Part shown: positions 29,460 through 62,987 of the stretch, one piece after another | Numbering within the stretch: the stretch's first letter is position 1 | Layout: every line of letters begins with the position of its first letter | Source: Paraphysomonas bandaiensis | Lineage: Eukaryota; Protista; Chrysophyceae | NCBI GenBank assembly: GCA_965644295.1 | Contig: CBFFRP010000219.1 | Span: 179,834 to 243,833, forward strand | Reading direction: 5' to 3' | DNA: 64,000 nucleotides | The notes under the pieces: generated by a model | What the model was told of the DNA's origin: nothing | The model's database searches: none | Seen by the model: the letters and a program-made list of their open reading frames with translations, nothing else | Program-made: the position numbers and the translations under genes

Positions 29460-31850
29460 CAGGGCCTGGTAACCATTAATGGCCCATTAATGGTAGTTCA
29501 GTTCCCGGCAATTATAATGGCATTAATGAAAAAAGTCCCGGCAATTATAATGATGGCCATTAATACCTACTAACTTAAAGTAGATAACACCACTCATATA
29601 ATAGATAGTGTTGTGCTCCCTGAATTACTAATTTTTAGTTGAATAGCAGACTACAAATTAACTACTTCTCGCTCTCTACTGGCACATCAGGATCTTCTTG
29701 CAGGGCTTCATGGAGGGTATAATCATCCCACAACATGTAATTGGCTCGTAGGAATAGCAACGATTCTAGACGATATGGATTCATGTTTCTACGCTCAGGT
29801 GTCATAATCAACTTTGCACGACTATAAAGAGCCTCTCAACAACATTAGAATATGTGCTTCAATATGAAGCAAGCAGCGGTAGTTGGACTCATAGGTGTAC
29901 CAAGTCGAGCTCTCTTGGTGACCTCGGCGCTGTCTAGAACACGCTGTGCAAAATCAGTTCCTTCACTCTCGTCCTCGTTATTTCTGTCGGGTACACCAAC
30001 CTCCATGGAGGAATCCAGTTGCAAATGTCTAACTGCTCTTCTCTCATTGCTTGTCAACTCTCTTTCATCGTTCCCTTGAATTTTAGCCACCGCCTTCTCA
30101 AAATTTGCACTGGCAACAATGCTTGCATTCGGGGAAAGGTATGGATGCAGCTCTGGAAATACTTGTAGCAGCATATCAAATAACTGGCGGGCTTGTTGGT
30201 ACAAATTGGTTCCATCTCTTTGTAAGGCCAGCGTAACACTTTGCAACTTTTCAAGTTGCGTCAAAAATAGTTTCAGATCTCGAAATTTAGCTGGAGTAAG
30301 AATCTTATCTTCCAGGGTGTTTGGGAAATTACATTCACCAAGAAAAGGATGCAGTTTTACGTATTTAACCAGCATGTTGTATGTTGAAGACCACCGAGTC
30401 ATATTTCTTCTTTCCGGCTTTTTATGTTTGTCCTCTGTGCAACAAGCAAACTTGCATTCTTCAGCGTCCTTAGATCCTTCATCAATAAATCGATTCTTTC
30501 AATAATGGTAGAGAGGCCTGTCTGGTCGCAGAAAATATTTGCAATTACCAAATTCAGTCGATGTGAGTAGCAACCAACCATTGGCTTCTCCATTAGTTCA
30601 GCCAGTTTGCGATTTACTGCAGAGTTATCACACACAAGACAATCGACATTGGCAAGAGTTTTATTGAATCATTGCAGTTGATTAATGACATAATCTCCGA
30701 TATCAGCCGCAGTAAATTCAATACCAGGTAAATCGTTTTCGTCCGGTTGCTCTTGAGGTCCGCAGCATAGTAACACTCGAGTAACCCCAGCTTCATTTTC
30801 CTTGGACCACATTGCGAATATTGCAATATAATGATCTGACGTGCCATCACATGTCCACCCATCAAAAACTAGACCAAATTTATCTGGTAACATAATACTC
30901 AACTTCCTTTCCACGAGTATATGTGTGCGTTGTAAATATTTCATCACCGTCTTCACTGAGATGGGTGCTAAATTGGTGTTCTTCCGAACATACTTATTCT
31001 CCACGATAGAAAATGGTTCGTCGTTCATAACTATCCATTCCAGCCACCGAAATAAGTTCCTTGAAGCAGGAGATACTTTCTTTCTTACAAAGGACAATAA
31101 ATCGCCCCCGTGAAGTCTTTCACATCCCAAAATTCTCTCGAGTTCCTCTCGCCAAGAAAAATCCGCATGTTTGGTGCTCTTGGTAATATGGTTCACACAA
31201 CTCGTGTAATCTCGCCTTATATCCTGTTTAAGGCGGTTATTGCACAAAGAACAAATATGATACAGAGGATTCTCTGAATCCACTCGGAAGAAGACTCTGT
31301 AAATTACATTGCCATCAATTTTTTCGGCCATCATCGTTGCTTAATATGCTGTTTGTATTGCATATATATGGTATAAATACAGAGTATATTACTTCGCTTA
31401 GTTGTGTACTGCTGTAGCTTCTTTCAACTTTGGGGAAAAATAGTGTTTTTATGAATGTTTTTAGGTGAAATATGCATATTTTCAATGATTATTTTAGAGC
31501 TTTTGGGTATATGGGTACGTTGATGCATATGGATATCGTCAGGACACTATTCTCCAACTGTGGAATGCATTAAGAAGATAGTGAACAGAGTTGCCACAGA
31601 GTGCCTGTAGAGTTGCATGAATATTGTTTAGAGTTTCTTCGGAGTATAGAGAAGATACTATATTCTATATTATCTTAATAGCACTCAGTTCTATATTATA
31701 TAGCAGTGCAGGTCATTAATGGGATACCATTAATGGCCCATTAATGGTAGTCCAGTTTCCCGCAATTATAATGGCATTAATTAAAAAAGTCCCGGCAATT
31801 ATAATGGCATTACCATTAATGCCATTACCATTAATGGTTACCAGGCCCTG
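29460..31850 (-). mobile_element. hAT DNA transposon, full length, transposase disrupted
   Basis: Perfect 23-bp TIR cagggcctggtaaccattaatgg; 8-bp TSD gcttgttc (29452-29459, 31851-31858); subterminal ccattaatgg repeats. Confidence 0.95.
29662..31334 (-). pseudogene. hAT transposase pseudogene
   Basis: BED finger CSLC..H..H, FDGWT, CDNSAVN, GCYSHRLNL, TRWSSTY, SNVVERLF/SRAKLIMT..LESLLFLRANYMLW. In-frame TGA at 30669-30671 and several frameshifts. Confidence 0.9.
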
Positions 31851-38639: not shown

Positions 38640-39094
38640 TGTAGTTTGGTGTGTGAGAGGTTGTAGCGTGTTGTTGTCACACTTGTGCATGATAATTCAT
38701 AGTGATGCTGATAGACCCTCCCAGAGTACAAGGTTTCATCAATGTTTCTGAAGGCGACTGAAGGACATCTATGGAGATTGTGTTGAGAAAGAATGGTGTA
38801 CAAAAGCCTACTTGAGCATTGGAGAGAGCGATGGAGTCCTGCCCATGCTGTTATATCTTACTATATTACTGCTCTTTAGCTTTGTGTTCGCCTGATCTAT
38901 GTTGTATTGATTATAATTCACCTTCTATGACCTCATGCTTCTGTAATTCGTAGCTATATGCGAGTACAATTCATGACTAGGTTTAATACTATAATTGGCT
39001 AGGTTGAGTCATTTATTGCTTTGACTAGGTTATTACACCAATTTTGGTGTGACTAGGAAAGTCCACCAAATTGACTAGGTTGAATAATATATCC
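38640..39094 (-). mobile_element. Second partial copy of the Mutator element (one TIR)
   Basis: Near-identical to 28921-29394, ending gttgaataatatatccc. Confidence 0.85.
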
Positions 39095-39588
39095 CCTTAT
39101 TTATTTATTTATTTCCCGGGTGCCTGTTTATTCGTCAGGGCCCAAAGACGTCTACACATGTGGCACTACTTAGTGTCCTTTGTACCACACTGAAAAAAGT
39201 CATATTCAATACAATTATAAGCTACAACGAGCACTATTTTATTGTATACACTTTTCAATTACACTTATCTCGTTCTCTTGTGACAGGTACGCTTGTCATG
39301 TGCTATTTGCACCAAAACAATGTAAGAGACATAATAATCTCGTGAACTGGAATGGGTATTACAGTTAGGTTTGAAGAGGGGACGACAAATAATTGGGTGT
39401 ATGCTAGCACAAATGCGACAATGATATATAATTACTGTTTCCACTACCTGTGATTTAGTTATTTCAAGTTGCAGTCGTTGTAACGTTGTAACTACCCAAA
39501 CCTCCTATCAAACTATAACATTGCATCAGATGCGTGTTAGATTTAGCAAAAACTAGCAAATGTAAAATACAATTATATCTGAATTGCG

Positions 39589-41763
39589 CTACTTTAGACG
39601 AGTTGATTCTATTACACGGAGGGTTTCTTGCGCAACTCTATCAGGATCACTTGGGACTGCAGCCACATTCCAAATGTAGTCGCCATCCCTGCCGTGCTGT
39701 AGGGCAAACTGCCATAGCTTGGCGTCATACCAAGGCACAGATGGGTATGGTGGTAGCAGCGGAGTAGTTTCTGCAAAACGCTGAGGGGCCACAAACAGCT
39801 CATGCGACTTTCCTTCTAGGACCTCCTTCCATATCTTCTTTCCTACCTGCACTATCATGAATTTAGTAGATGGCCATATACTGTGAAGGACGTCGAGAAT
39901 AAACCCCGAGCCTGAAACTAGCCAGAGACGACTTGGAGGAGAAATCCCTGCCAACGCAATAACTAGAACCTCTCTAAACATTTCAAACAGCGGGTCCCCC
40001 CTTTCACAGCGGAACCCAAAAGGTGAGGCATATCTGTTTTTCTCATCAGCTTTTACATATGCAGCCGCCTTCTCCTCAGCCTCCTTGAGAGTAGTGTATG
40101 TTTGCCCGAGATGAATATCCGCCCCCAGGCCTGCAGCCAAGCGAACCAGTGGAAGAGAACTGCCATCACTGGATCCATTCAAAAACACGACTGCCTTTTT
40201 ACCCCATAGTGCGGCGGTATATGCAAGAGCCACCTGGGCCATTCCCCCATCAGGACCAGCATACACAACCTCTTTGTGAGGGATTGTCCCAAGAAATTTA
40301 CCTAAAAGTCTCTGCTTAGTTCCACCCACACACTGTCCATCATCGAGTAATGTGAATGTCACTCCAGGTAGCGATGGATCTCGTATAGGACGAGGTGTCA
40401 TAGGAGGATTTGTCATCCGAGTGGCCCACTCCTTCAGCCCTTGTCTATTTAAAGAAGGGGCAGGCTGAAGTGACCGAGGTGCGACTTCCAAAGTGCTGCG
40501 AAACACCCACACGGTGCGCACAGAATTAGACATAACTCCAGTTAGCCCCAAGCAAAAAACCAGTTGTAGTGGACAGATATGTCTAACACGCTCCTTAAGA
40601 AATCTCTCAATGTTGCCCGCAGAGGTGTCTCCAATATGAATTGCTACGAATCCTCCCGGGCGCACGCACCGAGCAGAATGTTGGAACAAAGGCTCATAGA
40701 ACTCTGTTAGCCAGTCTTTATATCCAGGGTTGGAAGGAGTATACATTTCATAGTCAAAGAAAGGCGGAGAGGTAAAAACCAGATCATAGGAGTGATCACG
40801 GATTGCCTCAGCTCCTTTTTCGAAGGGCAAGGAGTTAATCTGGAAACCATTACTGAACTCAAGACGGGTTTGAGAGAATACCGTCGTCTGGTGACCACAG
40901 AGGCCCATAATTTTAGCATATCCTGGGCGGAGGCTACGATTGGGGTCAAAGGCAGTATATCGTGTTACACCAGCGGTCTCTGCACCTAATAGACGATCTC
41001 CCCATCCTGCACAAGGATCAAGGACTTGTGATGCACGGAAATACCGATATATTGCTTTGGCATAAGCCGGCATGAATGTAGTCGCCATCTTATACCCGTA
41101 CTTGCGGGCGAGAGACCACTTGGCCTCATTCGGATCTCCGGAACATGAAATTTCTGATTGAAAATTAGGGTTATCTCTCCACACCTCCCAAAAGCTGGGA
41201 AGGTCCACCACTTTATCTCCTCTGCGAAGCTTGAGGCGAGTGTTCAAAATCTGGTCTTCTTGAATGGCGCGGGTTATCTGCGAAGTATCCTCATTAGGTA
41301 GTGTGAATACCACGCGGTGGTCATTCTCATCCCCATAAGTCACTTGATTAGGCATCTCAGAGCGAAGCCTTTGAAGCAAATTAGCAACATCAACTTTAGA
41401 TTTTAACCGAGGGCATGCAGGTTGGTTCACTCTGAATTGCGCGTCTTCCTCCTCTAGTTTCTTCATTATAGATGAAGGCGACAACAGAGTTCCGTCCTGC
41501 GCTCCCTCATGGTCATCTCTCTTTCTCTTCTTCCCCCCCTCACCTTTACCAACCACTGAGGGTTTCGTCCACACAGACTCTCCGGTGCGCTCATTATACC
41601 AATAAGGCATACTGTGGGTCTTGGAGAACTTTTCCTCCCACACATCCTCTGACATGACAGGAGCCTCCCATCTGCTCTCCTTAGTATCATCATTATACCA
41701 GTAATATGCCTTCTTAGAAGAAGACCACACCTTAGACCACGAGGAAGAAGAATTCGCAGACAT
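39589..41763 (-). CDS. Intronless 724-aa fusion: WW-WW, NLS, amino (N4C/N6A-type) methyltransferase, fold-type-II PLP enzyme
   Basis: WW1 WSKVWSSSKKAYYWYNDDTKESRWEAP; WW2 WEEKFSKTHSMPYWYNERTGESVWTKP; KKRKR; SAM motif VLDPCAGWGDRL; catalytic DLVFTSPPFF; PLP lysine motif DDGQCVGGTKQR; VYAGPDGGMAQVALA; WLVSGSG; PYPSVPWYDAKLW; IWNVA. Confidence 0.88.
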   Translation of the reverse strand: MSANSSSSWSKVWSSSKKAYYWYNDDTKESRWEAPVMSEDVWEEKFSKTHSMPYWYNERTGESVWTKPSVVGKGEGGKKRKRDDHEGAQDGTLLSPSSIMKKLEEEDAQFRVNQPACPRLKSKVDVANLLQRLRSEMPNQVTYGDENDHRVVFTLPNEDTSQITRAIQEDQILNTRLKLRRGDKVVDLPSFWEVWRDNPNFQSEISCSGDPNEAKWSLARKYGYKMATTFMPAYAKAIYRYFRASQVLDPCAGWGDRLLGAETAGVTRYTAFDPNRSLRPGYAKIMGLCGHQTTVFSQTRLEFSNGFQINSLPFEKGAEAIRDHSYDLVFTSPPFFDYEMYTPSNPGYKDWLTEFYEPLFQHSARCVRPGGFVAIHIGDTSAGNIERFLKERVRHICPLQLVFCLGLTGVMSNSVRTVWVFRSTLEVAPRSLQPAPSLNRQGLKEWATRMTNPPMTPRPIRDPSLPGVTFTLLDDGQCVGGTKQRLLGKFLGTIPHKEVVYAGPDGGMAQVALAYTAALWGKKAVVFLNGSSDGSSLPLVRLAAGLGADIHLGQTYTTLKEAEEKAAAYVKADEKNRYASPFGFRCERGDPLFEMFREVLVIALAGISPPSRLWLVSGSGFILDVLHSIWPSTKFMIVQVGKKIWKEVLEGKSHELFVAPQRFAETTPLLPPYPSVPWYDAKLWQFALQHGRDGDYIWNVAAVPSDPDRVAQETLRVIESTRLK

Positions 41764-41801
41764 ACCCAACAAAACTTAATAATAACCAGATCTGTACACA
41801 G

Positions 41802-42157
41802 ATACATACATACATACATACATACATACATACATACATACATACATACATACATACATACATACATACATACATACATACATACATACATACATACATA
41901 CATACATACATACATACATACATACATACATACATACATACATACATACATACATACATACATACATACATACATACATACATACATACATACATACATA
42001 CATACATACATACATACATACATACATACATACATACATACATACATACATACATACATACATACATACATACATACATACATACATACATACATACATA
42101 CATACATACATACATACATACATACATACATACATACATACATACATAAGTACATAC

Positions 42158-42190
<33 letters not shown>

Positions 42191-42308
42191 CATACATACA
42201 TACATACATACATACATACATACATACATACATACATACATACATACATACATACATACATACATACATACATACATACATACATACATACATACATACA
42301 TACATACA

Positions 42309-42342
<34 letters not shown>

Positions 42343-42454
42343 CATACATACATACATACATACATACATACATACATACATACATACATACATACATACA
42401 TACACTCCTACCTGTACATACATACATACATACATACATACATACATACATACA

Positions 42455-42486
<32 letters not shown>

Positions 42487-42515
42487 CCTACCTACCTACC
42501 TACCTACCTACATAT
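41802..42515. repeat. (TACA)n microsatellite, ~700 bp, ending in (TACC)n
   Basis: Directly visible; the source of the spurious MYVC ORFs. Confidence 0.99.
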
Positions 42516-42638
42516 ATACATGCTTGTACATATCTGTGCATCTACGTGTAGGTGTGACGATGTATTTGCAGTGGGGTGGCTCATTGTCGTGCTGTGTCAG
42601 TATATAGTTATATATTATCATCTATATATATCCTAACT

Positions 42639-43592
42639 ATGAAAACTGCGATTGCGTGTCTGCTGATGACTGGCGGAGCCTCTGCTCACGGGATATTCTG
42701 GGTACGTCTCTGTGTCTCTCCCTGTATATATATATATATATGTATGTGTGTGTGGGCTAACAGGTGATGTGTAGTCTCCCACTAGCAGAGCCATTCTATC
42801 AGAGCAGTCCGGATACATGGAAGATGCTACAACTATCATATCCGAACCAATGCCAGATGTCGCTGAAGGCAGAGAGTATCCGGGCGGCCGTCCCTTTGCT
42901 GAGCCCGGTATGAGCAAGAGTAATATCGGCCCGTGTGGTATGGAGACATACGACAGTCTTATGACCAACTGGAATCATCCGGAGCATAGTTGGGGTGATA
43001 TACAGGCCGTCTATAATGCGGGTGACATCATTGACGTCGAATGGTGCGTTTCCAACATCGCGGACCATGGAGGCCTCTATTCATACAGGATTTGCCAAGA
43101 CGACGCTTTGGTGGCACGGTTCATCGATCCTGCCGTTACCCCCACTCAAGCTGAGATGGATCAGCTAGAGACCTGTTTTCAGGACGGAATTCTTAAATGT
43201 ACTGACGTGGAAGGACAAGACTGCCCGGTACATCCGGATTGCGTGGTAATGTGACTGTATTCCACTCGTACAAATAATTAATTGTTGCTGGTAGGGTACT
43301 GGGTGGGGCTGCGACAGTGAGTACGGCCAGCAGTGGTTCGCTTGTGGACCCAAGGACAGTGGCAGGTGCCAGGCGCGTGGTGTGGGAACGTGCAGGACTC
43401 ATGGAGGTTAGAAACGTCAAGCCAGTGCACAGGTGTATCTCACTTGCTCTTTTGACAGATGAAGGAACCATCTTACGGGACAAGGTGAAGCTCCCTAATT
43501 TCACATCCAACCATACCCTGCTTGGGTTCCGCTGGGATTGCGAGGACACAGGCCAGCTCTGGTTGCACTGTGCCGACATTCAACTTGTGTAA
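42639..43592 (+). CDS. Secreted AA13-like lytic polysaccharide monooxygenase (exons 42639-42701, 42775-43245, 43295-43406, 43459-43592)
   Basis: Signal peptide ending ASA, then His1 (HGIFWSPTSRA); GPCG; NWNHPEHSWG; WCVSNIADHGGLYSYRICQD; CFQDGILKCTDVEGQDC; KVKLPNFTSNHTLLGFRW; TGQLWLHCADI. Colinear with fungal AA13 as recalled. Confidence 0.88.
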
Positions 43593-53321: not shown

Positions 53322-53483
53322 GATGCACGAGGCATTGCGTTTATTCTATGGGAGAATATAGAGTATCTTATCGCTATATACGCGACTAGAGGCACCTTCT
53401 GTTACAACACATGATCCTATCCACATCTGTTCCAGCCATATCCAGATACAGATACTCTCCACTGTGCATATGGTTTATGTATC

Positions 53484-53890
53484 ATGTATGGTATGTATGT
53501 ATGTATGTATGTATGTATGTATGTATGTATGTATGTATGTATGTATGTATGTATGTATGTATGTATGTATGTATGTATGTATGTATGTATGTATGTATGT
53601 ATGTATGTATGTATGTATGTATGTATGTATGTATGTATGTATGTATGTATGTATGTATGTATGTATGTATGTATGTATGTATGTATGTATGTATGTATGT
53701 ATGTATGTATGTATGTATGTATGTATGTATGTATGTATGTATGTATGTATGTATGTATGTATGTATGTATGTATGCATGTATGTATGTATGTATGTATGT
53801 ATGTATGTATGTATGTATGTATGTATGTATGTAGGTATGTATGTATGTATGTATGTATGTATGCATGTATGTATGTATGTATGTATGTAT
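53484..53890. repeat. (TATG)n microsatellite, ~400 bp
   Basis: Directly visible. Confidence 0.99.
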
Positions 53891-55446: not shown

Positions 55447-58400
55447 TGTTGGAATACGTATGGTTCTCTAAGATAGTACTGTAGAATACGTTAAATACAA
55501 TGTGAAAAACAGTAATACGTAGTCAATAGTCAAAGGTGCTATATAGCTATAACTGTGAAACTGAAGTATTATATCATGACGATTCAAGATACGGAAGTTG
55601 AGCAGTGGTTGACATGAACGAAATAATTTATCATGTTGTTGACATGTGTTACATGACAACACACACAATTGTGTATACAATCATAATAAAGTAATCTATC
55701 TAGTTTGACTAACTTAAACTTCTCTTACAACGATCTTAATCATCTGAAAATGGTCATTAGTCAACATGGTAGCGAATGCGGAGGAGAGAAGGAGGATAGA
55801 GCTGATGTTCCATGGTTCGACGAGAGCAACGTTGAACAATGGATCGAAGACTTTGAGACGTTCCTTATGAGAAAGGAGCAGAGTGAGGTGGCTCTAGAAA
55901 GGCCACCAGAGGAAGAGGATTTCGGAATTCAACCCCTGAATAGTCTTGAGACCAAGTCCTACAAAGAAGCGGTGGACAAGTATTGGAAGGCGAATGCAAT
56001 TGCTTACTCATACTGCAGAGAGGCGGTGAAGCGATCTCCGAAGGCGCTGCAGAAGTTTCATCTGAAGCACAAGGAGTTCAAGGCAGCTGAAGGAAGAGTT
56101 AATAAGTTCAGCGCCAGAGAGATGGTTAGCACTCTTAAATCGTGTTTTGAAGGGGGAACACAAAACAAGATTAGTGCTCTGCTTGCTCAGTTTGGATCAT
56201 TCGAGATGAAGCCAGGGGAGACCGCGAAAGAGTATGTACTGCGTTTTGAGCTGCTTCTTCGTGAACTTCAGGCGCATAACCAAACGGTAACGGAAGAATC
56301 AAAAATTAGTAGGCTGAAGGAGGGAATTATCAGTGATGAATATGACGGTTTGAATTATGCCCTGTATTTAATGCCCGATGATGTACCATATGAATTGCTA
56401 TCCAAACGTATCGAACAGTTCGACGACACCAAGTATGGGAGGAAAATCATAGAGAAGAAGCGCAAGAGCACGGAGGAGCTGAATCATATTGAAAAGCCTC
56501 GAAAGAAAGAGAGAGTATCTACAAAGAGGAAGTGCACTTATTGCTCGAAGAAAGGTATAATACACAATCATAATACAGAACAATGTAGGAAGAAAAAGGG
56601 GGAAACGAAGGGACAAAGACCGGGCAGTAAGGAATATACAGGATGCAGAGTATGCAAATCCAAAAACCATCGCGCGAACGAATGTCCCCGAAATTCGACT
56701 GGAAAGACCAAGAAACCCCAGAAATCTGGGAAGGTTTTCACATTCGAGAATATCCGCAGAGGAGGAACCGAGTCTGACTCGGAGTCCGAAGCGAATATGC
56801 TTTATGACTGTGCTGTTGATATATATGATAAAAGTGACACATGTTGTATGATTGGTACTGCTGAACACTATACATACATAGATACATGCTGTTCATCATC
56901 AATGTTCTTAATGAATGATGTGACCATGCTTGACACTCATATGAATACATCAAAGGTGATAAACGGATCTAAGAAGGGATCAGAGATTCATATCACAAGT
57001 GTGGGTTCCCGTGGAGCATGGAGAGACATAGAAATTTCAGATCAGATCAATCGATGCCTGTGCTCCGGACGTAAGCTGAACGAAATGGGCTATCGATTCA
57101 CGGTGTGGTATGGGATCCAAATTTATGACTGTAATACCGGTGAGCTGGTACTGGAGGGACCCATGAAGAATGGAATGACTGCAGTTCCAACTCAGCAGCT
57201 GTTGGAGCTTCCAGATGTGTCTACACCGAGTAATTGTGAAGTAAATCTTAGCGATAGGACTGGTGAGGACGAGCTGGAACTGCTGCATCGGAGAATGGGC
57301 CATTTCAACAAAGGGGCTCTAACGGAGGCACATAGAAGGATGTTGTTCACTGGCTCAAATCTGCAGAGGAAGCACCTATCGAAGACTGCATTAAAAAAAT
57401 CTTGTCTCTGTAGCATATGTGCCAGATCAAAGATTACGAGAGTTTCGTTTCACACAAAGGAGGATACGGATGTCAAGCCGGACATATCGGCTGATGTGCA
57501 AGTATTTCTGAATACTCCCGCTCGAGGTGATGAGCGCTACGTGATCAAACTAACTCATCACCCGAGTAGGATGTTCTGGGTAAAAGGCGTAAACCAGCGT
57601 ACTAAAGAAGAAGTGATTCAGTTTTTTAGAGAGGTGTTCGAAGGAGAGATTAGGCAATATAAGCTGAGAGTGGACCACTACCACGCTGATGGAGCTGGAG
57701 AACTCATAAATCAAGAACTTAGGAGCTATTTGAGATCACAAGGCTGCTACAAACATACTTGGTCTTCAACAGATAGTCCGGAAATGAATGCAGTAGAGGA
57801 GCGAAAATTCAGGACTGCATCAGAGATGGCGTTGGCGATGTTGTTGCAGTCAGGCCTACCGGTTCCATTCTGGTTAGACGCGTATCATGCTGCTCGCTAT
57901 ACACTGATCAGACTCCCTACAAGGACGGACAGAGGATACATGTCCCCATATGAGTATGTCACGGGTCAGCCACCCAGTTTGAAATATTTTAGAGTATGGG
58001 GGTGCAAAACTTATATATTGACACCTAAGGCGGATAGGCGAAAGGACTGGGACGATAAATCAAAGATTGGATACCTAGTGGGATATTCGGAAGATAAAGT
58101 TGGATACCAGGTGTATCTCCCAGCAACCGATAAGGTAATTACGTGTGTACACATACTCACAGATGAGAGTATACCTTCCCGCACCGAAGAATATTACGCA
58201 GAAATCGACGCTCTCCGAGTACGAACAGCACCTAGACCAAAGACGGTGAATGATTATCAGCATCTCGTGAAGACTTTTCACATAGACGATGAAGACGGGC
58301 TGTTGTACAAGACCACCAGAGTGGTAGAAAGAAAGGGTGTCGTTGTTGGTTATCGGTCACTTGTAACTGCGGGGAGAACCCACATTGAGCAGAAGGTACC

Positions 58401-60926
58401 CATACATATAGAAGATGTTCAGGTAATGACAAGGAATACGCCTGGATACACGGGATATACGGGAACGAGGGACGCCTCTAGTACCACTGATGGACGGAGT
58501 ACGTCCACTATCCCAGCGCCTGAGAGCCATCAGGAGCAGCTAGTTAACCATGGTATTATTCAGGGAGCACCTGATGAAGATATGACTCAAGGAGTACTTG
58601 ATGAAGATGCAGCTCAGGGAGTACCTGAATATACTGATACTATAAATTCTAACAGTACTAATACCCTACAGAGAGTATCTAAAAGGGATGCAGAGAAACG
58701 TAAGCGTTTACGGAGGAGGCTAGCTAATGCTTCAGTGTTAGGAGAAATTAACATGATAGAGGTAATGGATGCCGATGTAAATGTCATGGATTCAGAGGAG
58801 AGTACTGAGAATAAACACGTCCATGAACCGAACAGTTTTCTAGAGGCGGAGAGGTCCCCTCAAGCGGACGAATGGAGAACAGCCAGACGAATAGAGAAGA
58901 AAGCTCTTTTACGAAGAGGCGTTTTGAAGATAGTACGTCGACCATCTGGGGTCAAATTAATCAGATGTAAGTATGTTCACAAACTCAAGCGTGACATACT
59001 AGGCAACATACAGAAGTATAAAGCTCGACTAGTCGCACTAGGAAATCTTCAGGAGAAAACTGAGGAGGAGCCATCTACATTTGCACCGGTCGTAAAAGGG
59101 ATAACTATCAGGCTCGTGATTGCAATTGCTTTTATGTTCCATATGCATGTACACCAGCTTGATGTCAGTTCTGCATTTTGTTATGCAAATTTAGATGAAG
59201 ATGTCTACATGTACCCACCTCCAGATGAGGAGCTCAGCAATGGATGGTGCTTTAAACTCATCAAAGCACTATATGGTTTACGAGCCTCACCGCGTCAGTG
59301 GAATCGCCACATCGATAAATTCATAAAGTCAATGCAGTTTAGATCATGCGTGTTAGATACCTGCTTATATTATCGTTGGCACCAAGGCAAACTTACGTTA
59401 TTACTCCTGTATGTAGATGACATCATTATCGCATCTGTGGATTTTGAATTCCTTGTTTTTGTCAAGAACAAGTTCTGCCAAACGTTTGAAATGAGGGACA
59501 TGGGAGAGTGCCAAAGTTTCCTAAATATTCGAATCACGAGAGGCGAAGACTGGTTCAAACTAGATCAATCGAAGTATGCGGAGAAAGTGATTCAGAAATT
59601 CAACCATGTCATGGGAAACAGTAGAAAGAATAAGGAAGCTCCGTTGCCATCAAATGCACAAGAACTACTAGCTGCAGAACGGGAACTTACATCAGAACAG
59701 GAGGAATGGGTCTCAAAATTTCCGTATCGTAGTATTATTGGAGCAATCCTGTATCTCGCACTCCACACAAGACCAGATCTCGCCTATGCAATCGGACTAC
59801 TATCGAGATACAGCAGTAATCCTACATACGCATCGTGTCGTTTAGCTATTCATTTATTGAAATATTTGAGAGGCACCACCAGCAAAGGAATCAAATTCAG
59901 TGGGAGTAAGTTTGATTTACATGTATTTAGTGATGCGGACTGGGCAGGTGATATACTAACGAGACGTTCAACTACCGGTTATATTGTATTCTTATGTGCT
60001 GGAGCAATCGCATGGCAGTCCAAACTGCAGACTACAGTTGCAACTTCCAGTATGGAGTCCGAGTATATGGCAGAATATGCGGCCATGCAAGAACTGGTGT
60101 GGCTACGGGGGGTGTTACGAGAGCTAGGACTCGCATTGACGAAGCCAACCCCATTCTTCATGGACAGCAAGAGTGCAAAAGATCTGTCAGAAAATCCAGT
60201 CTACCACAAAAGATCAAAACATATTCAGATAAAGTACCACTGGGTTCGGGAACACGTAAATGGAAGGTTTCCTACAGCCAGATTGATTCATGTATCGACT
60301 AAGGATATGGCGGCCGACATATTTACAAAAGCGTTATCTACAAAGCTCTTTAAACTCCATGAAGAAACTATCACAGGGGAAAAGAGGAGCATTTCAAATG
60401 AAGTTGAGAAGAATCAGAAGAAGCGGTTCAAGAAAGGTTAAGGGTGTGTTTTTAGTGGGTAAGAATCCCACATAACTGTGTTACAGCGAAGTGTGATGTT
60501 CACAGTATCTTTATGAAGATTTTCACATCCGTTTTATCCTAAGATGACTAGATGATATATATAGCTGCAGTATAACGACGATTACTCGTTTCTACATTGA
60601 GGAGGAGTGTTGGAATACGTATGGTTCTCTAAGATAGTACTGTAGAATACGTTAAATACAATGTGAAAAACAGTAATACGTAGTCAATAGTCAAAGGTGC
60701 TATATAGCTATAACTGTGAAACTGAAGTATTATATCATGACGATTCAAGATACGGAAGTTGAGCAGTGGTTGACATGAACGAAATAATTTATCATGTTGT
60801 TGACATGTGTTACATGACAACACACAAATTGTGTATACAATCATAATAAAGTAATCTATCTAGTTTGACTAACTTAAACTTCTCTTACAACGATCTTAAT
60901 CATCTGAAAATGGTCATTAGTCAATA
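55447..60926 (+). mobile_element. Full-length Ty1/Copia LTR retrotransposon
   Basis: LTRs 55447-55766 and 60608-60926 differ, as far as I can see, only by a 1-bp indel and terminal CA/TA. PBS tggtagcg at 55767; PPT gaggaggag before 60608. Confidence 0.97.
55750..60441 (+). CDS. Copia gag-pol polyprotein, uninterrupted
   Basis: Zinc knuckles CTYC..H..C and CRVCKSKNHRANEC; protease YIDTCCS; HRRMGH..CSIC; integrase ADV..HADGAGE..AVEERK; RT YKARLVA, QLDVSSAF, LYVDD; RNase H DADWAG, SMESEY, ADIFTK. First ATG (55750) lies inside the 5' LTR. Confidence 0.96.
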   Translation: MVISQHGSECGGEKEDRADVPWFDESNVEQWIEDFETFLMRKEQSEVALERPPEEEDFGIQPLNSLETKSYKEAVDKYWKANAIAYSYCREAVKRSPKALQKFHLKHKEFKAAEGRVNKFSAREMVSTLKSCFEGGTQNKISALLAQFGSFEMKPGETAKEYVLRFELLLRELQAHNQTVTEESKISRLKEGIISDEYDGLNYALYLMPDDVPYELLSKRIEQFDDTKYGRKIIEKKRKSTEELNHIEKPRKKERVSTKRKCTYCSKKGIIHNHNTEQCRKKKGETKGQRPGSKEYTGCRVCKSKNHRANECPRNSTGKTKKPQKSGKVFTFENIRRGGTESDSESEANMLYDCAVDIYDKSDTCCMIGTAEHYTYIDTCCSSSMFLMNDVTMLDTHMNTSKVINGSKKGSEIHITSVGSRGAWRDIEISDQINRCLCSGRKLNEMGYRFTVWYGIQIYDCNTGELVLEGPMKNGMTAVPTQQLLELPDVSTPSNCEVNLSDRTGEDELELLHRRMGHFNKGALTEAHRRMLFTGSNLQRKHLSKTALKKSCLCSICARSKITRVSFHTKEDTDVKPDISADVQVFLNTPARGDERYVIKLTHHPSRMFWVKGVNQRTKEEVIQFFREVFEGEIRQYKLRVDHYHADGAGELINQELRSYLRSQGCYKHTWSSTDSPEMNAVEERKFRTASEMALAMLLQSGLPVPFWLDAYHAARYTLIRLPTRTDRGYMSPYEYVTGQPPSLKYFRVWGCKTYILTPKADRRKDWDDKSKIGYLVGYSEDKVGYQVYLPATDKVITCVHILTDESIPSRTEEYYAEIDALRVRTAPRPKTVNDYQHLVKTFHIDDEDGLLYKTTRVVERKGVVVGYRSLVTAGRTHIEQKVPIHIEDVQVMTRNTPGYTGYTGTRDASSTTDGRSTSTIPAPESHQEQLVNHGIIQGAPDEDMTQGVLDEDAAQGVPEYTDTINSNSTNTLQRVSKRDAEKRKRLRRRLANASVLGEINMIEVMDADVNVMDSEESTENKHVHEPNSFLEAERSPQADEWRTARRIEKKALLRRGVLKIVRRPSGVKLIRCKYVHKLKRDILGNIQKYKARLVALGNLQEKTEEEPSTFAPVVKGITIRLVIAIAFMFHMHVHQLDVSSAFCYANLDEDVYMYPPPDEELSNGWCFKLIKALYGLRASPRQWNRHIDKFIKSMQFRSCVLDTCLYYRWHQGKLTLLLLYVDDIIIASVDFEFLVFVKNKFCQTFEMRDMGECQSFLNIRITRGEDWFKLDQSKYAEKVIQKFNHVMGNSRKNKEAPLPSNAQELLAAERELTSEQEEWVSKFPYRSIIGAILYLALHTRPDLAYAIGLLSRYSSNPTYASCRLAIHLLKYLRGTTSKGIKFSGSKFDLHVFSDADWAGDILTRRSTTGYIVFLCAGAIAWQSKLQTTVATSSMESEYMAEYAAMQELVWLRGVLRELGLALTKPTPFFMDSKSAKDLSENPVYHKRSKHIQIKYHWVREHVNGRFPTARLIHVSTKDMAADIFTKALSTKLFKLHEETITGEKRSISNEVEKNQKKRFKKG

Positions 60927-61355: not shown

Positions 61356-62228
61356 TGTTCGATGTGTTCAACACCATTCATTTACTACTATAGTCTACAA
61401 ACCACACACTCAGTGATCGTATCCTGTATAGTCACCCACTTCTACTTCAGTTTCATACTACACAATATAATGTACTAATTACATATATATCTTTCGATCC
61501 TTGCATATCTCACATAATACTGCACTCAATTGCAAGTATATAGAATCTTCAGATCTCAACACTCCCCCTCAATTGAGTGTTGTACTATGACGCCTCCCAG
61601 CTATTGAATGCCTGAGATAAAAAAATTCTTGACAGTAAAATAGACTCATCTCTAAGTCTAAACCTCTGTCTAAAAAACTCAGTACCTACTTGCGTCTTCT
61701 TTTATCCCTTGGTCCCTCATTAATCACTTCAGTGGAACTCTTAATTTTCTCTCCAAGATTTCTCTTTCTCTGCTCCATATATGATAAACCAACCAATGAC
61801 TTTGTATAAATATCTGCTGCTTGTTGCGATGTATGCACATGCACTAACTTAATCGTATTGAACTGATTGGGATCCACGTGCTCTCTCACCATGTGATACT
61901 TAATCTCAATGTGCTTCGACTTCTTGTGAAACACTGGGTTTTCGGCCAAATCCTGGGCACTCTGACTGTCGATGAAGAATGGTGTGGGTTTGATGAGCCT
62001 CAACTTAATCTCACCCGTCACCCCCCGAACCCATAGCACTTCTTGGAGACCCGAGTAAATACACTGATACTCAGACTGCATGCTTGACGTTGCCACTGTC
62101 GTCTGCAGTTTGGACTGCCAGACTATAGGCCCTCCCGCTGCAAACCCAACGTACCCCGACGTGGACTTCCTGGAGAGCTGGTCTCCCGCCCAATCCGCGT
62201 CAGTAAACATATGGAAGTCGAACCGTCT
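61356..62228 (-). mobile_element. Truncated second Copia element (RNase H, PPT, 3' LTR; left boundary uncertain)
   Basis: FTDADWAGDQLSRKSTSGY..WQSKLQTTVATSSMQSEY..ADIYTK, related to but distinct from the intact element. PPT gagggggag then tgttgag starting at 61561 on the minus strand. Confidence 0.85.
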
Positions 62229-62987
62229 TGCAATGGAACTCAGGTTGGGACCTGAGAGCCAAACTCTAAATAAGCTAAAACTCGCTTTAACAGAGAGAAT
62301 GCTGCTTATTATTAACCTATACTACTTCTGCAGTACTAAATGCTTCTCGGCACCCCAAGAAACTAAAGCACAACTCACCAGCTATGCAGTTCAGTACTAA
62401 ACAGAAAAAGTGACGAGCTACAACAACCAACAAAGAGAGAACAAGCTTAACTAAACACACACAGAGAGAGGGGGGGGGGTCTTCGACCCTAGCCGTGTTA
62501 ACCGTGACCATAAAAACTATTAATTTATACTGACCCTTACCCCTATGGTATCGCTGTGTATCACGTACAAGTGCTTCCAATATTGTACATTACATTTTTT
62601 TATACACTTTTTTACATAAAAAATGTCGTGTCACCTTTCACAATAAAAAATGCAAAAAAAATATTATTTTCACAAATTTTGCAACAGTATACACAACATT
62701 TTTTACAACATTTTTCTTAAAAAAAAACTTTTTTCTAAAAAATAAATATCAGAAATAAATATTTTCAACAAAAATGTCAAAAAAAATGCAATCAAAATAA
62801 AATAATACTATACATAATACCAAACGATAGACCGACCCTATTAACAAACGATAGACCAACCCTGACTTAAACACCGAACAATTACAACAGATAGACGGAA
62901 CAACAGACCTGTTTAACACTATATATAGACATGCCGTATTTTACTCCCTATTATCCTGTAAAAAAATATATACACCTATTATATATA

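Follow-up and report, generated by a model that had tools for sequence, protein, structure and literature searches.

A golden-algal protein with WW, SAM-dependent and PLP domains: a virus-type candidate for aminopropylation of nucleic acid bases

Which reaction would be catalyzed by a protein that carries two WW domains, a domain dependent on S-adenosylmethionine (SAM), and a pyridoxal phosphate (PLP) domain in one chain? The question is raised by an intronless gene at 39589..41763 on the reverse strand of a 64,000-nucleotide stretch of Paraphysomonas bandaiensis DNA (Chrysophyceae; GenBank GCA_965644295.1, contig CBFFRP010000219.1, positions 179,834 to 243,833), here called the window. A first-pass annotation, made from the letters alone, had read the 724-amino-acid product as two virus-derived modification enzymes fused and supplied with a nuclear targeting module. 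We propose that the group placed on RNA or DNA bases is aminopropyl and not methyl, and that it arises through aminocarboxypropyl (acp) transfer and PLP-dependent decarboxylation; we hold this proposal to be about as probable as its negation.

The two catalytic domains and their linkage in viruses

The PLP domain (amino acids 450-705; 39649..40416) belongs to the family of the phage protein M6 gp52, in agreement with the hypermodification-type enzyme first suspected here. In PHROGs, it matches phrog_7093 over amino acids 480-701 (E 1.3e-13, profile positions 33-278 of 279), the family that M6 gp52 itself matches at E 2.2e-159. HHalign placed the query PLP family on M6 gp52 over 232 columns with a probability of 94.4, aligning Lys483 of the GGTKQR motif (40315..40317), the predicted PLP aldimine lysine, with Lys36. 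Lys483, Tyr679, Asp680, and Lys682 have a rounded frequency of 1.00 over 122 aligned rows. The domain also contains the motifs SGSG (39904-39915), YDAK (39718-39729), and WNVA (39661-39672). M6 gp52 and ViI gp226 are described as PLP-dependent decarboxylases of amino acid:base conjugates in DNA (PMC8989533). They share phrog_7093, a full-length alignment, the lysine, and the C-terminal YDxKxW...WN motifs with the query domain, at about 19% identity. They act after a 5-hydroxymethyluracil (5hmU) kinase and an amino-acid:DNA transferase (PMC8989533), whereas the constant partner of the query domain is SAM-dependent. The AlphaFold model of the domain has fold type II and matches ACC deaminase, TrpB, cysteine synthase, and further enzymes about equally well, at Z scores of 19.7-18.8. 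For the comparison with ACC deaminase and D-cysteine desulfhydrase, Z is 19.7-19.5, level with all fold-type II enzymes at 14-18% identity. Pfam PALP is weak (E 0.12, 12.1 bits against a cut-off of 35), and no NCBIfam family matches. An identity as ACC deaminase or D-cysteine desulfhydrase was rejected because the likeness is at the fold level, with no family-level sequence match.

The SAM-dependent domain (amino acids 92-428; 40480..41490) is assigned by PHROGs and AlphaFold to the unpermuted class I Rossmann type, with an N-terminal subdomain. PHROGs matched it to phrog_12517 (E 6.3e-09) and phrog_498, and Pfam N6_N4_Mtase is weak (E 0.12, below the cut-off). The AlphaFold model shows a class I Rossmann core with a predicted local distance difference test (pLDDT) score of 95 and a predicted template modelling score (pTM) of 0.93. 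In the exocyclic-amine binding motif IV, TSPPFF (40756..40773), SPPF closes a strand at model residues 235-240 (pLDDT 95), the place of [DNSH]PP[YFW] after strand 4. Motif I, DPCAGWGDRL, is present as first read, but its position is 40990..41019 rather than about 40993-41025. It contains the near-invariant Arg257 (40993-40995), and an arginine stands there in 252 of 258 distinct family sequences. Solved DNA amino-methyltransferases read G-T/V-G-T-T in motif I (GTGTT or GVGTT), whereas the query reads G-W-G-D-R and lacks the G-T/V/S-G-T-T pattern of solved DNA methylases. HHalign aligned GWGDR to GGSVR of phage proteins, with a family homology probability of 98.4. We therefore doubt that this domain is simply a methyltransferase. 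Its ESM Atlas neighbors are unnamed or auto-named viral clusters, and the top BFVD structural matches of a predicted model include pithovirus proteins and an uncharacterized salmon gill poxvirus protein.

TrmN/Trm11 proteins match the SAM-dependent fold at Z 14.5 (root-mean-square deviation 2.7-3.4, 175-179 residues aligned), and the best Z score of 14.6 is shared among many methyltransferases. Neither THUMP nor a TRM11/TrmN family match was found in Pfam or NCBIfam. An ordinary TRM11 identity is probably to be rejected, since the likeness is at the fold level: it extends over the core common to these enzymes, and unrelated methyltransferases score equally well.

The two domains are linked in viruses. 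Of 479 stretches picked up in a scan with the PLP alignment, 451 were confirmed, and the best 80 viral PLP loci were taken. A SAM-dependent domain is present at 73 of these 80 loci: fused at 16, within 100 bp at 51, within 1 kb at 5, and further away at 1, with 7 loci lacking it. It is found in 14 of the 16 sequence groups formed at 60% identity. That the two domains are neighbors or fused in viruses, a point raised for checking in the first-pass annotation, is supported. The pair occurs in ParB-terminase loci, T4-like replication modules, and giant viruses, in both domain orders. The SAM domain of Erythrobacter phage ZS04 and that of Pam4 hold the PLP domain as an insertion. Microcystis phage Mae-JY30 and Mycobacterium smegmatis phage Vincenzo encode the PLP domain in the gene next to the SAM-domain gene; like the Erythrobacter phages R6L and ZS04, these two combine a SAM domain that has the motif I arginine with a PLP domain. 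The dependence is one-sided, with the PLP gene nearly always accompanied by a SAM domain and the SAM domain often alone. The R6L paper describes ORF1 as one CcrM-like domain.

Some of these loci carry further genes. Asp/Asn beta-hydroxylase, PAPS-reductase-like, Mom, GNAT, Nmad1, and ASCH genes, of tailoring or reader type, lie by the viral pair (L082:4814-5968, L092:4795-7376, L099:1778-4393, L071:6694-8886, L510:39-818), which suggests further decoration of an amino-acid-like side chain. A search of the 80 loci with five M6 proteins found no 5hmU kinase or amino-acid:DNA transferase, although this search was insensitive and missed a thymidylate-synthase-like gene at one locus. At that locus (L087:3332-6675), a PLP member without a SAM domain follows the thymidylate-synthase-like gene and two unknown open reading frames (ORFs), possibly a 5hmU-type system. 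At L121:2465-6894 and L131:3192-7107, a stand-alone giant-virus SAM domain lies two genes from a packaging ATPase, which we take to be A32-like and which echoes the phage terminase link.

Motif I arginine or aspartate and the proposed chemistry

The partner of the SAM domain varies with motif I. In phage ZRG1, a SAM decarboxylase-like (AdoMetDC) gene follows the ParB-SAM gene and motif I reads GDTVF. The cultured phages ZRG1 and P2559S, the latter checked afterwards, are both of this Asp type with an adjacent AdoMetDC. Among 168 distinct ParB-type phage sequences, 61 are Asp-type without the arginine, and these have an AdoMetDC neighbor in 53 cases, stand alone in 8, and never have a PLP neighbor. 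The 98 Arg-type sequences have a PLP gene in 33 cases and an AdoMetDC in none, and 65 stand alone (Pam4 is wrongly counted among these 65). Two sequences have neither residue, and 7 were unparsed, 4 of them with AdoMetDC. Eight positions differ in a fixed manner between the Asp type (61 sequences) and the Arg type (90 sequences), and every one of them lies in the cofactor-binding half, within alignment columns 6-92. The ESH motif, presumably the pyruvoyl site, is kept in 57 of 58 AdoMetDC-like neighbors. One Asp-type subclade with the motif GDTQKG (L224, L228-L230, L232, L245, L248) has no AdoMetDC within 3 kb and may use host decarboxy-SAM.

A decarboxylase of the gp52 type can act only where the base carries an alpha-amino acid, which the acp arm of SAM would supply and a methyl group would not. 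For this reason we infer acp transfer; the order of steps, the target base, RNA or DNA as substrate, and RNA polymerase II binding are inferred likewise. In the first step, the SAM domain would transfer the acp arm of SAM to the base. In the second, the PLP domain would decarboxylate the base-bound acp to aminopropyl. Arg-type enzymes would hold the carboxylate of SAM, transfer acp, and leave decarboxylation to the PLP enzyme. Asp-type enzymes would use decarboxy-SAM, so that both types would deliver an aminopropyl group, and lone Arg-type enzymes would leave an acp-base. Spermidine synthases have an aspartate in the corresponding loop. The same logic is proposed for microcin C, which is aminopropylated by MccD, an acp transferase of methyltransferase fold, and the PLP decarboxylase MccE (PMC10491745). 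The acceptor there is the phosphate of a peptide-nucleotide, in contrast to the proposed base in a polymer, and no specific homology was seen. Tyw2 and discadenine synthase place SAM-derived acp on purine-type bases, and Tyw2 has a Rossmann fold. They lack a decarboxylation step, and apart from the fold no homology to the query SAM domain was seen.

Several observations weigh against this proposal. The fold search with the SAM domain showed no special likeness to acp or aminopropyl transferases, since MccD (Z 12.2, rank 48) and BpsA (Z 12.5) score below Trm11/TrmN. Both domains occur at only 10 of 85 loci of giant-virus and metagenome contigs, and unrelated domains are freely fused in giant viruses. 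In a tree of 105 rows, with fused rows and sequences more than 80% alike dropped, the Asp/AdoMetDC type forms one clade (support 100) with two independent pairs, so the correlation cannot reach significance. Lone Arg-type enzymes make up the 65 of 98 ParB loci given above, and phage HCTV-2 is an example of an Arg-type phage that lacks a decarboxylase. In a second subfamily, each of the 80 loci is Arg-type and lacks a decarboxylase within 3 kb; a second independent switch from arginine to aspartate was looked for there and not found. A PLP or AdoMetDC decarboxylase was found in none of five whole phage genomes. Around another phage AdoMetDC (L350-L429, a freshwater T4-like phage group), 57 of 80 loci have an ordinary GSGTT methyltransferase and 11 hold an Arg-type family member. 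AdoMetDC may thus join methylase islands for other reasons, and its association with the Asp type is not exclusive. The position of the Pin1 loop arginine is not conserved in the query. In addition, phage AdoMetDC homologs can be arginine or ornithine decarboxylases (PMC9992855).

It is possible, though we think it rather unlikely, that the SAM domain methylates N4 of cytosine (or N6 of adenine) in the ordinary way. The PLP enzyme would then act on a different adduct, made by the products of genes at other places, and the two would be linked only as parts of a modification island. SPP[YF] is given as a mark of N4-cytosine methyltransferases (PMC4738411). The best solved sequence relatives of the SAM domain are TTHA0409, rotifer N4CMT, and M.PvuII, and most family members have no decarboxylase neighbor. 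The ParB-terminase phage amino-methyltransferases of unpermuted group 1 in the same survey share the unpermuted fold and the serine of the strand-4 motif with the query; its available text has no mention of a PLP or AdoMetDC partner, acp transfer, or a WW-fused ochrophyte form. Against plain methylation, no further enzyme is found repeatedly over the 16 groups of best viral PLP loci, several phages carry the PLP domain as an insertion within the SAM domain, and the change from arginine to aspartate beside AdoMetDC is left unexplained.

The order of steps may be reversed, with the PLP enzyme decarboxylating or converting free SAM and the SAM fold transferring aminopropyl from decarboxy-SAM, or the decarboxylase may simply drain SAM as a counter-defence. 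PLP and AdoMetDC genes take the same slot, the order of steps is ambiguous for MccD/MccE as well, and PLP enzymes that use SAM directly are known. However, PLP-linked enzymes keep the arginine and AdoMetDC-linked ones lose it, which suggests different donors, and the characterized PLP family members act on polymer-bound adducts (PMC8989533). We consider this reading unlikely in either version.

A shift of the algal target to a protein or small molecule, such as a residue of a WW-bound partner, seems more improbable still. The [DNSH]PP[YFW] clade includes protein glutamine methyltransferases (PMC4738411), and Pfam recognizes no nucleic-acid-binding domain outside the catalytic cores. Against such a shift, the viral relatives are found at loci for DNA replication or of the ParB-terminase kind, or else joined to enzymes of cap type, and the algal domains are about 48% identical to those of giant viruses.

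Ancestry, WW domains, and the substrate in the alga

A search with amino acids 100-724 gave 150 proteins, of which the best 120 were listed. Among the matches listed, 21 are full-length relatives at 46-56% identity, and 19 of the 21 have detected WW domains. Two complete MMETSP transcripts belong with these relatives. GWGxR, SPPF, GG[ST]KQR, and YDAK are kept in all 21. The named WW-bearing relatives are from Mallomonas, Dinobryon, and Hydrurales, and in contigs L102 and L103 the ortholog sits among algal-type genes. The architecture recurs in other protists, a further point raised for checking in the first-pass annotation. WW proteins with the methyltransferase-like domain only or the PLP domain only both occur. 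Over 208 proteins, near-copies included, the order is SAM-PLP in 114 and PLP-SAM in 21, with the SAM domain only in 41 and the PLP domain only in 29. Salpingoeca has the PLP-SAM order, and Planoprotostelium and Didymoeca have a PLP domain. Giant-virus contigs L001 and L002 encode the SAM-PLP pair at 48% identity at the end of a 2,288-amino-acid protein. In L002 (3015-9881), glycosyltransferase-like domains are joined to the pair in this protein.

Quick IQ-TREE trees with SH-aLRT support were built from rows thinned at 68% identity. In the PLP tree (122 rows, rooted on the long branch of M6 gp52), all 91 rows of eukaryote or giant-virus type form one branch (support 100) inside the phage rows. 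The query lies in a 25-row set (support 96) made up of 14 rows for WW proteins, 2 for giant-virus loci, and 9 without a label. Viral proteins fused to Tgs1-type and PCIF1-type cap methyltransferases are in this set. In the SAM tree (100 rows), the query falls in a 36-row set (support 96) in which WW and giant-virus rows are intermixed. Both catalytic domains are of virus type in these trees, and sequence comparison supports a viral ancestry of both. This part of the first-pass scenario stands. The fusion of the two enzymes, in contrast, was probably not made in the alga, since it is present in giant viruses at 48% identity and in tailed phages. Since the enzyme pair was already fused or adjacent in viruses, the WW pair is the added part. 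The same survey as above derives eukaryotic clades in haptophytes, chlorophytes, and chytrids from ParB-terminase loci (PMC4738411).

The WW domains lie at amino acids 7-36 (41656..41745) and 41-68 (41560..41643), followed by KKRKR (41518..41532), a predicted nuclear localization signal. Pfam WW (PF00397) matches two stretches at 41.1 bits against a cut-off of 26.9. A serine stands five residues after the first tryptophan in 60 of 61 WW matches, and a basic residue follows within three positions in 45 of 61. By Pin1 residue numbering, the loop-1 serine and spacing are as in Pin1, and WW domain 1 has the Pin1/PCIF1-like loop-1 spacing, which supports the likeness to Pin1 and PCIF1 drawn in the first-pass annotation. 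The PDB matches begin with the tandem Prp40 WW domains and include those of Ess1/Pin1 and PCIF1. In the giant-virus contig L002, an ORF (173-922) neighboring the SAM-PLP protein contains a WW domain, so such domains occur in giant viruses too.

The WW pair and the basic signal would place the enzyme in the nucleus on a phospho-Ser-Pro scaffold, for example the RNA polymerase II tail, which PCIF1 reaches through its WW domain (PMC4738411). PCIF1/CAPAM, which makes the cap-adjacent N6-methyladenosine, resembles the query in its N-terminal WW domain of similar type and amino-methyltransferase fold, and viral relatives of the query PLP domain are fused to PCIF1-type domains. The query has no match to the PCIF1 catalytic profile PF12237 at E <= 1 and differs in its SPPF motif, two WW domains, and additional PLP domain; it is an analog, not a member. 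On the reading proposed here, the protein would combine the working of a phage hypermodification module with a targeting part that resembles the one of PCIF1. By their definitions, it falls outside PCIF1 and probably outside TRM11 and the 5hmU pathway too.

The phage settings of the pair, ParB-terminase loci and replication modules, point to DNA. Relatives of giant-virus type are fused to PCIF1-type (5 proteins), Tgs1-type (13), VP39-type (1), and cap guanine-N7 (1) domains, and two are fused to RNA polymerase Rpb3/11-like domains. Other fusions of this type involve glycosyltransferases, a peptidase, and a helicase. For amino-methyltransferases, several moves from DNA to RNA substrates are described in the eukaryotes (PMC4738411). 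Because of the Pin1/PCIF1-like WW domains and the viral sister proteins fused to cap-type methyltransferases, we slightly favor nascent RNA near the 5' end over DNA as the substrate in the alga.

A wider reading, which we consider doubtful, is that viral N4/N6 "DNA methylases" of this family are base aminoalkyl transferases making acp- or aminopropyl-bases, with SAM and a PLP decarboxylase or with decarboxy-SAM, and that golden algae took over one of them, using WW domains, so that their own mRNA receives a positively charged aminopropyl mark during transcription. If the proposed chemistry is right, aminopropyl addition to RNA or DNA bases would be an undescribed base modification. A motif read everywhere as that of a "methyltransferase" would then stand for another kind of chemistry in a family of thousands of viral members; about 2,700 and 3,100 IMG/VR stretches match the two subfamily patterns. 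Such a system would give a two-gene route to cationic base hypermodification that needs only SAM, and a role for some phage SAM decarboxylases that lack a spermidine synthase; it would also mean that the nucleus of a eukaryote in culture has an RNA or DNA mark not described before. Each gene combination is present in several cultured phages, where the chemistry can be tested without cloning. We found no account in the literature of the SAM-PLP pair, acp or aminopropyl transfer to phage DNA, aminopropylated viral bases, or a WW-methyltransferase-PLP protein, although the neighborhoods may have been noted earlier, for example in the 2013 NAR survey by Iyer. The available text of PMC7824862 and PMC13458397 does not treat the pair.

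The gene and the rest of the window

The ORF is intact as first read, without an internal stop, and an in-frame stop lies 12 nt upstream of its ATG. Every motif named for it was recovered, with positions that agree exactly or differ by only a few bases from those given. The description of the genome as intron-rich is based on split ORFs in neighboring genes of the window. The full-length AlphaFold model has a pTM of 0.51, and its domain arrangement is not fixed. A tblastn search of the window found no second copy of the gene within the 64 kb.

The gene stretch or part of it is contained in 20 of 23 listed sequencing runs, and four poly(A) metatranscriptome runs from one marine sample hold 64-76% of its words. 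Contigs of runs X3, X5, X11, and X12 were compared with window positions 39000-41800. Single gap-free contigs cover 39473-41696 in run X11 (RNA by guess) and 39436-41758 in run X5 (probably DNA), and six pieces cover 39474-41728 in the poly(A) RNA run X12. A misassembly is unlikely because the single contigs of two other runs cross both domains without a gap. The X11 and X12 contigs end at 39473-39474 whereas the DNA run X3 continues beyond, a weak hint of the 3' end. The GC content at third codon positions is 0.45 for the gene; four host ORFs have 0.39-0.42, and RACK1 has 0.63. The RACK1 of the window is present in EukProt, and the named hits to it are ochrophytes at 79-82%. Six strain differences fall in the gene, 2 synonymous and 4 missense with none in the motifs, too few for a selection test. 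The gene is real and likely expressed. A misassembly, a contaminating viral contig, or a dead viral relic, which the lack of introns and the flanking long microsatellite and dispersed repeat might suggest, is very improbable and largely refuted by these gap-free contigs, the poly(A) RNA coverage, the third-position GC content near that of the four host genes, the 21 intact relatives, two complete MMETSP transcripts, and the orthologs among algal-type genes.

The microsatellite is an (ATAC)n array of about 180 copies (41802..42521), 38 bp upstream of the ATG. The dispersed repeat lies downstream of the gene (39000-39190), where many contigs of all four runs fit in part. A TATG array of about 104 copies occupies 53476-53890. 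An exon at 42775-43254 (+) resembles a lytic polysaccharide monooxygenase or chitin-binding protein, and two ORFs at 29845-31340 (-) are presumably pieces of a hAT-like transposase. An uninterrupted ORF of 1,583 amino acids (55690-60441, +), which we take to be a copia-type retrotransposon polyprotein, is followed by a second RNase H-like fragment at 61686-62321 (-).

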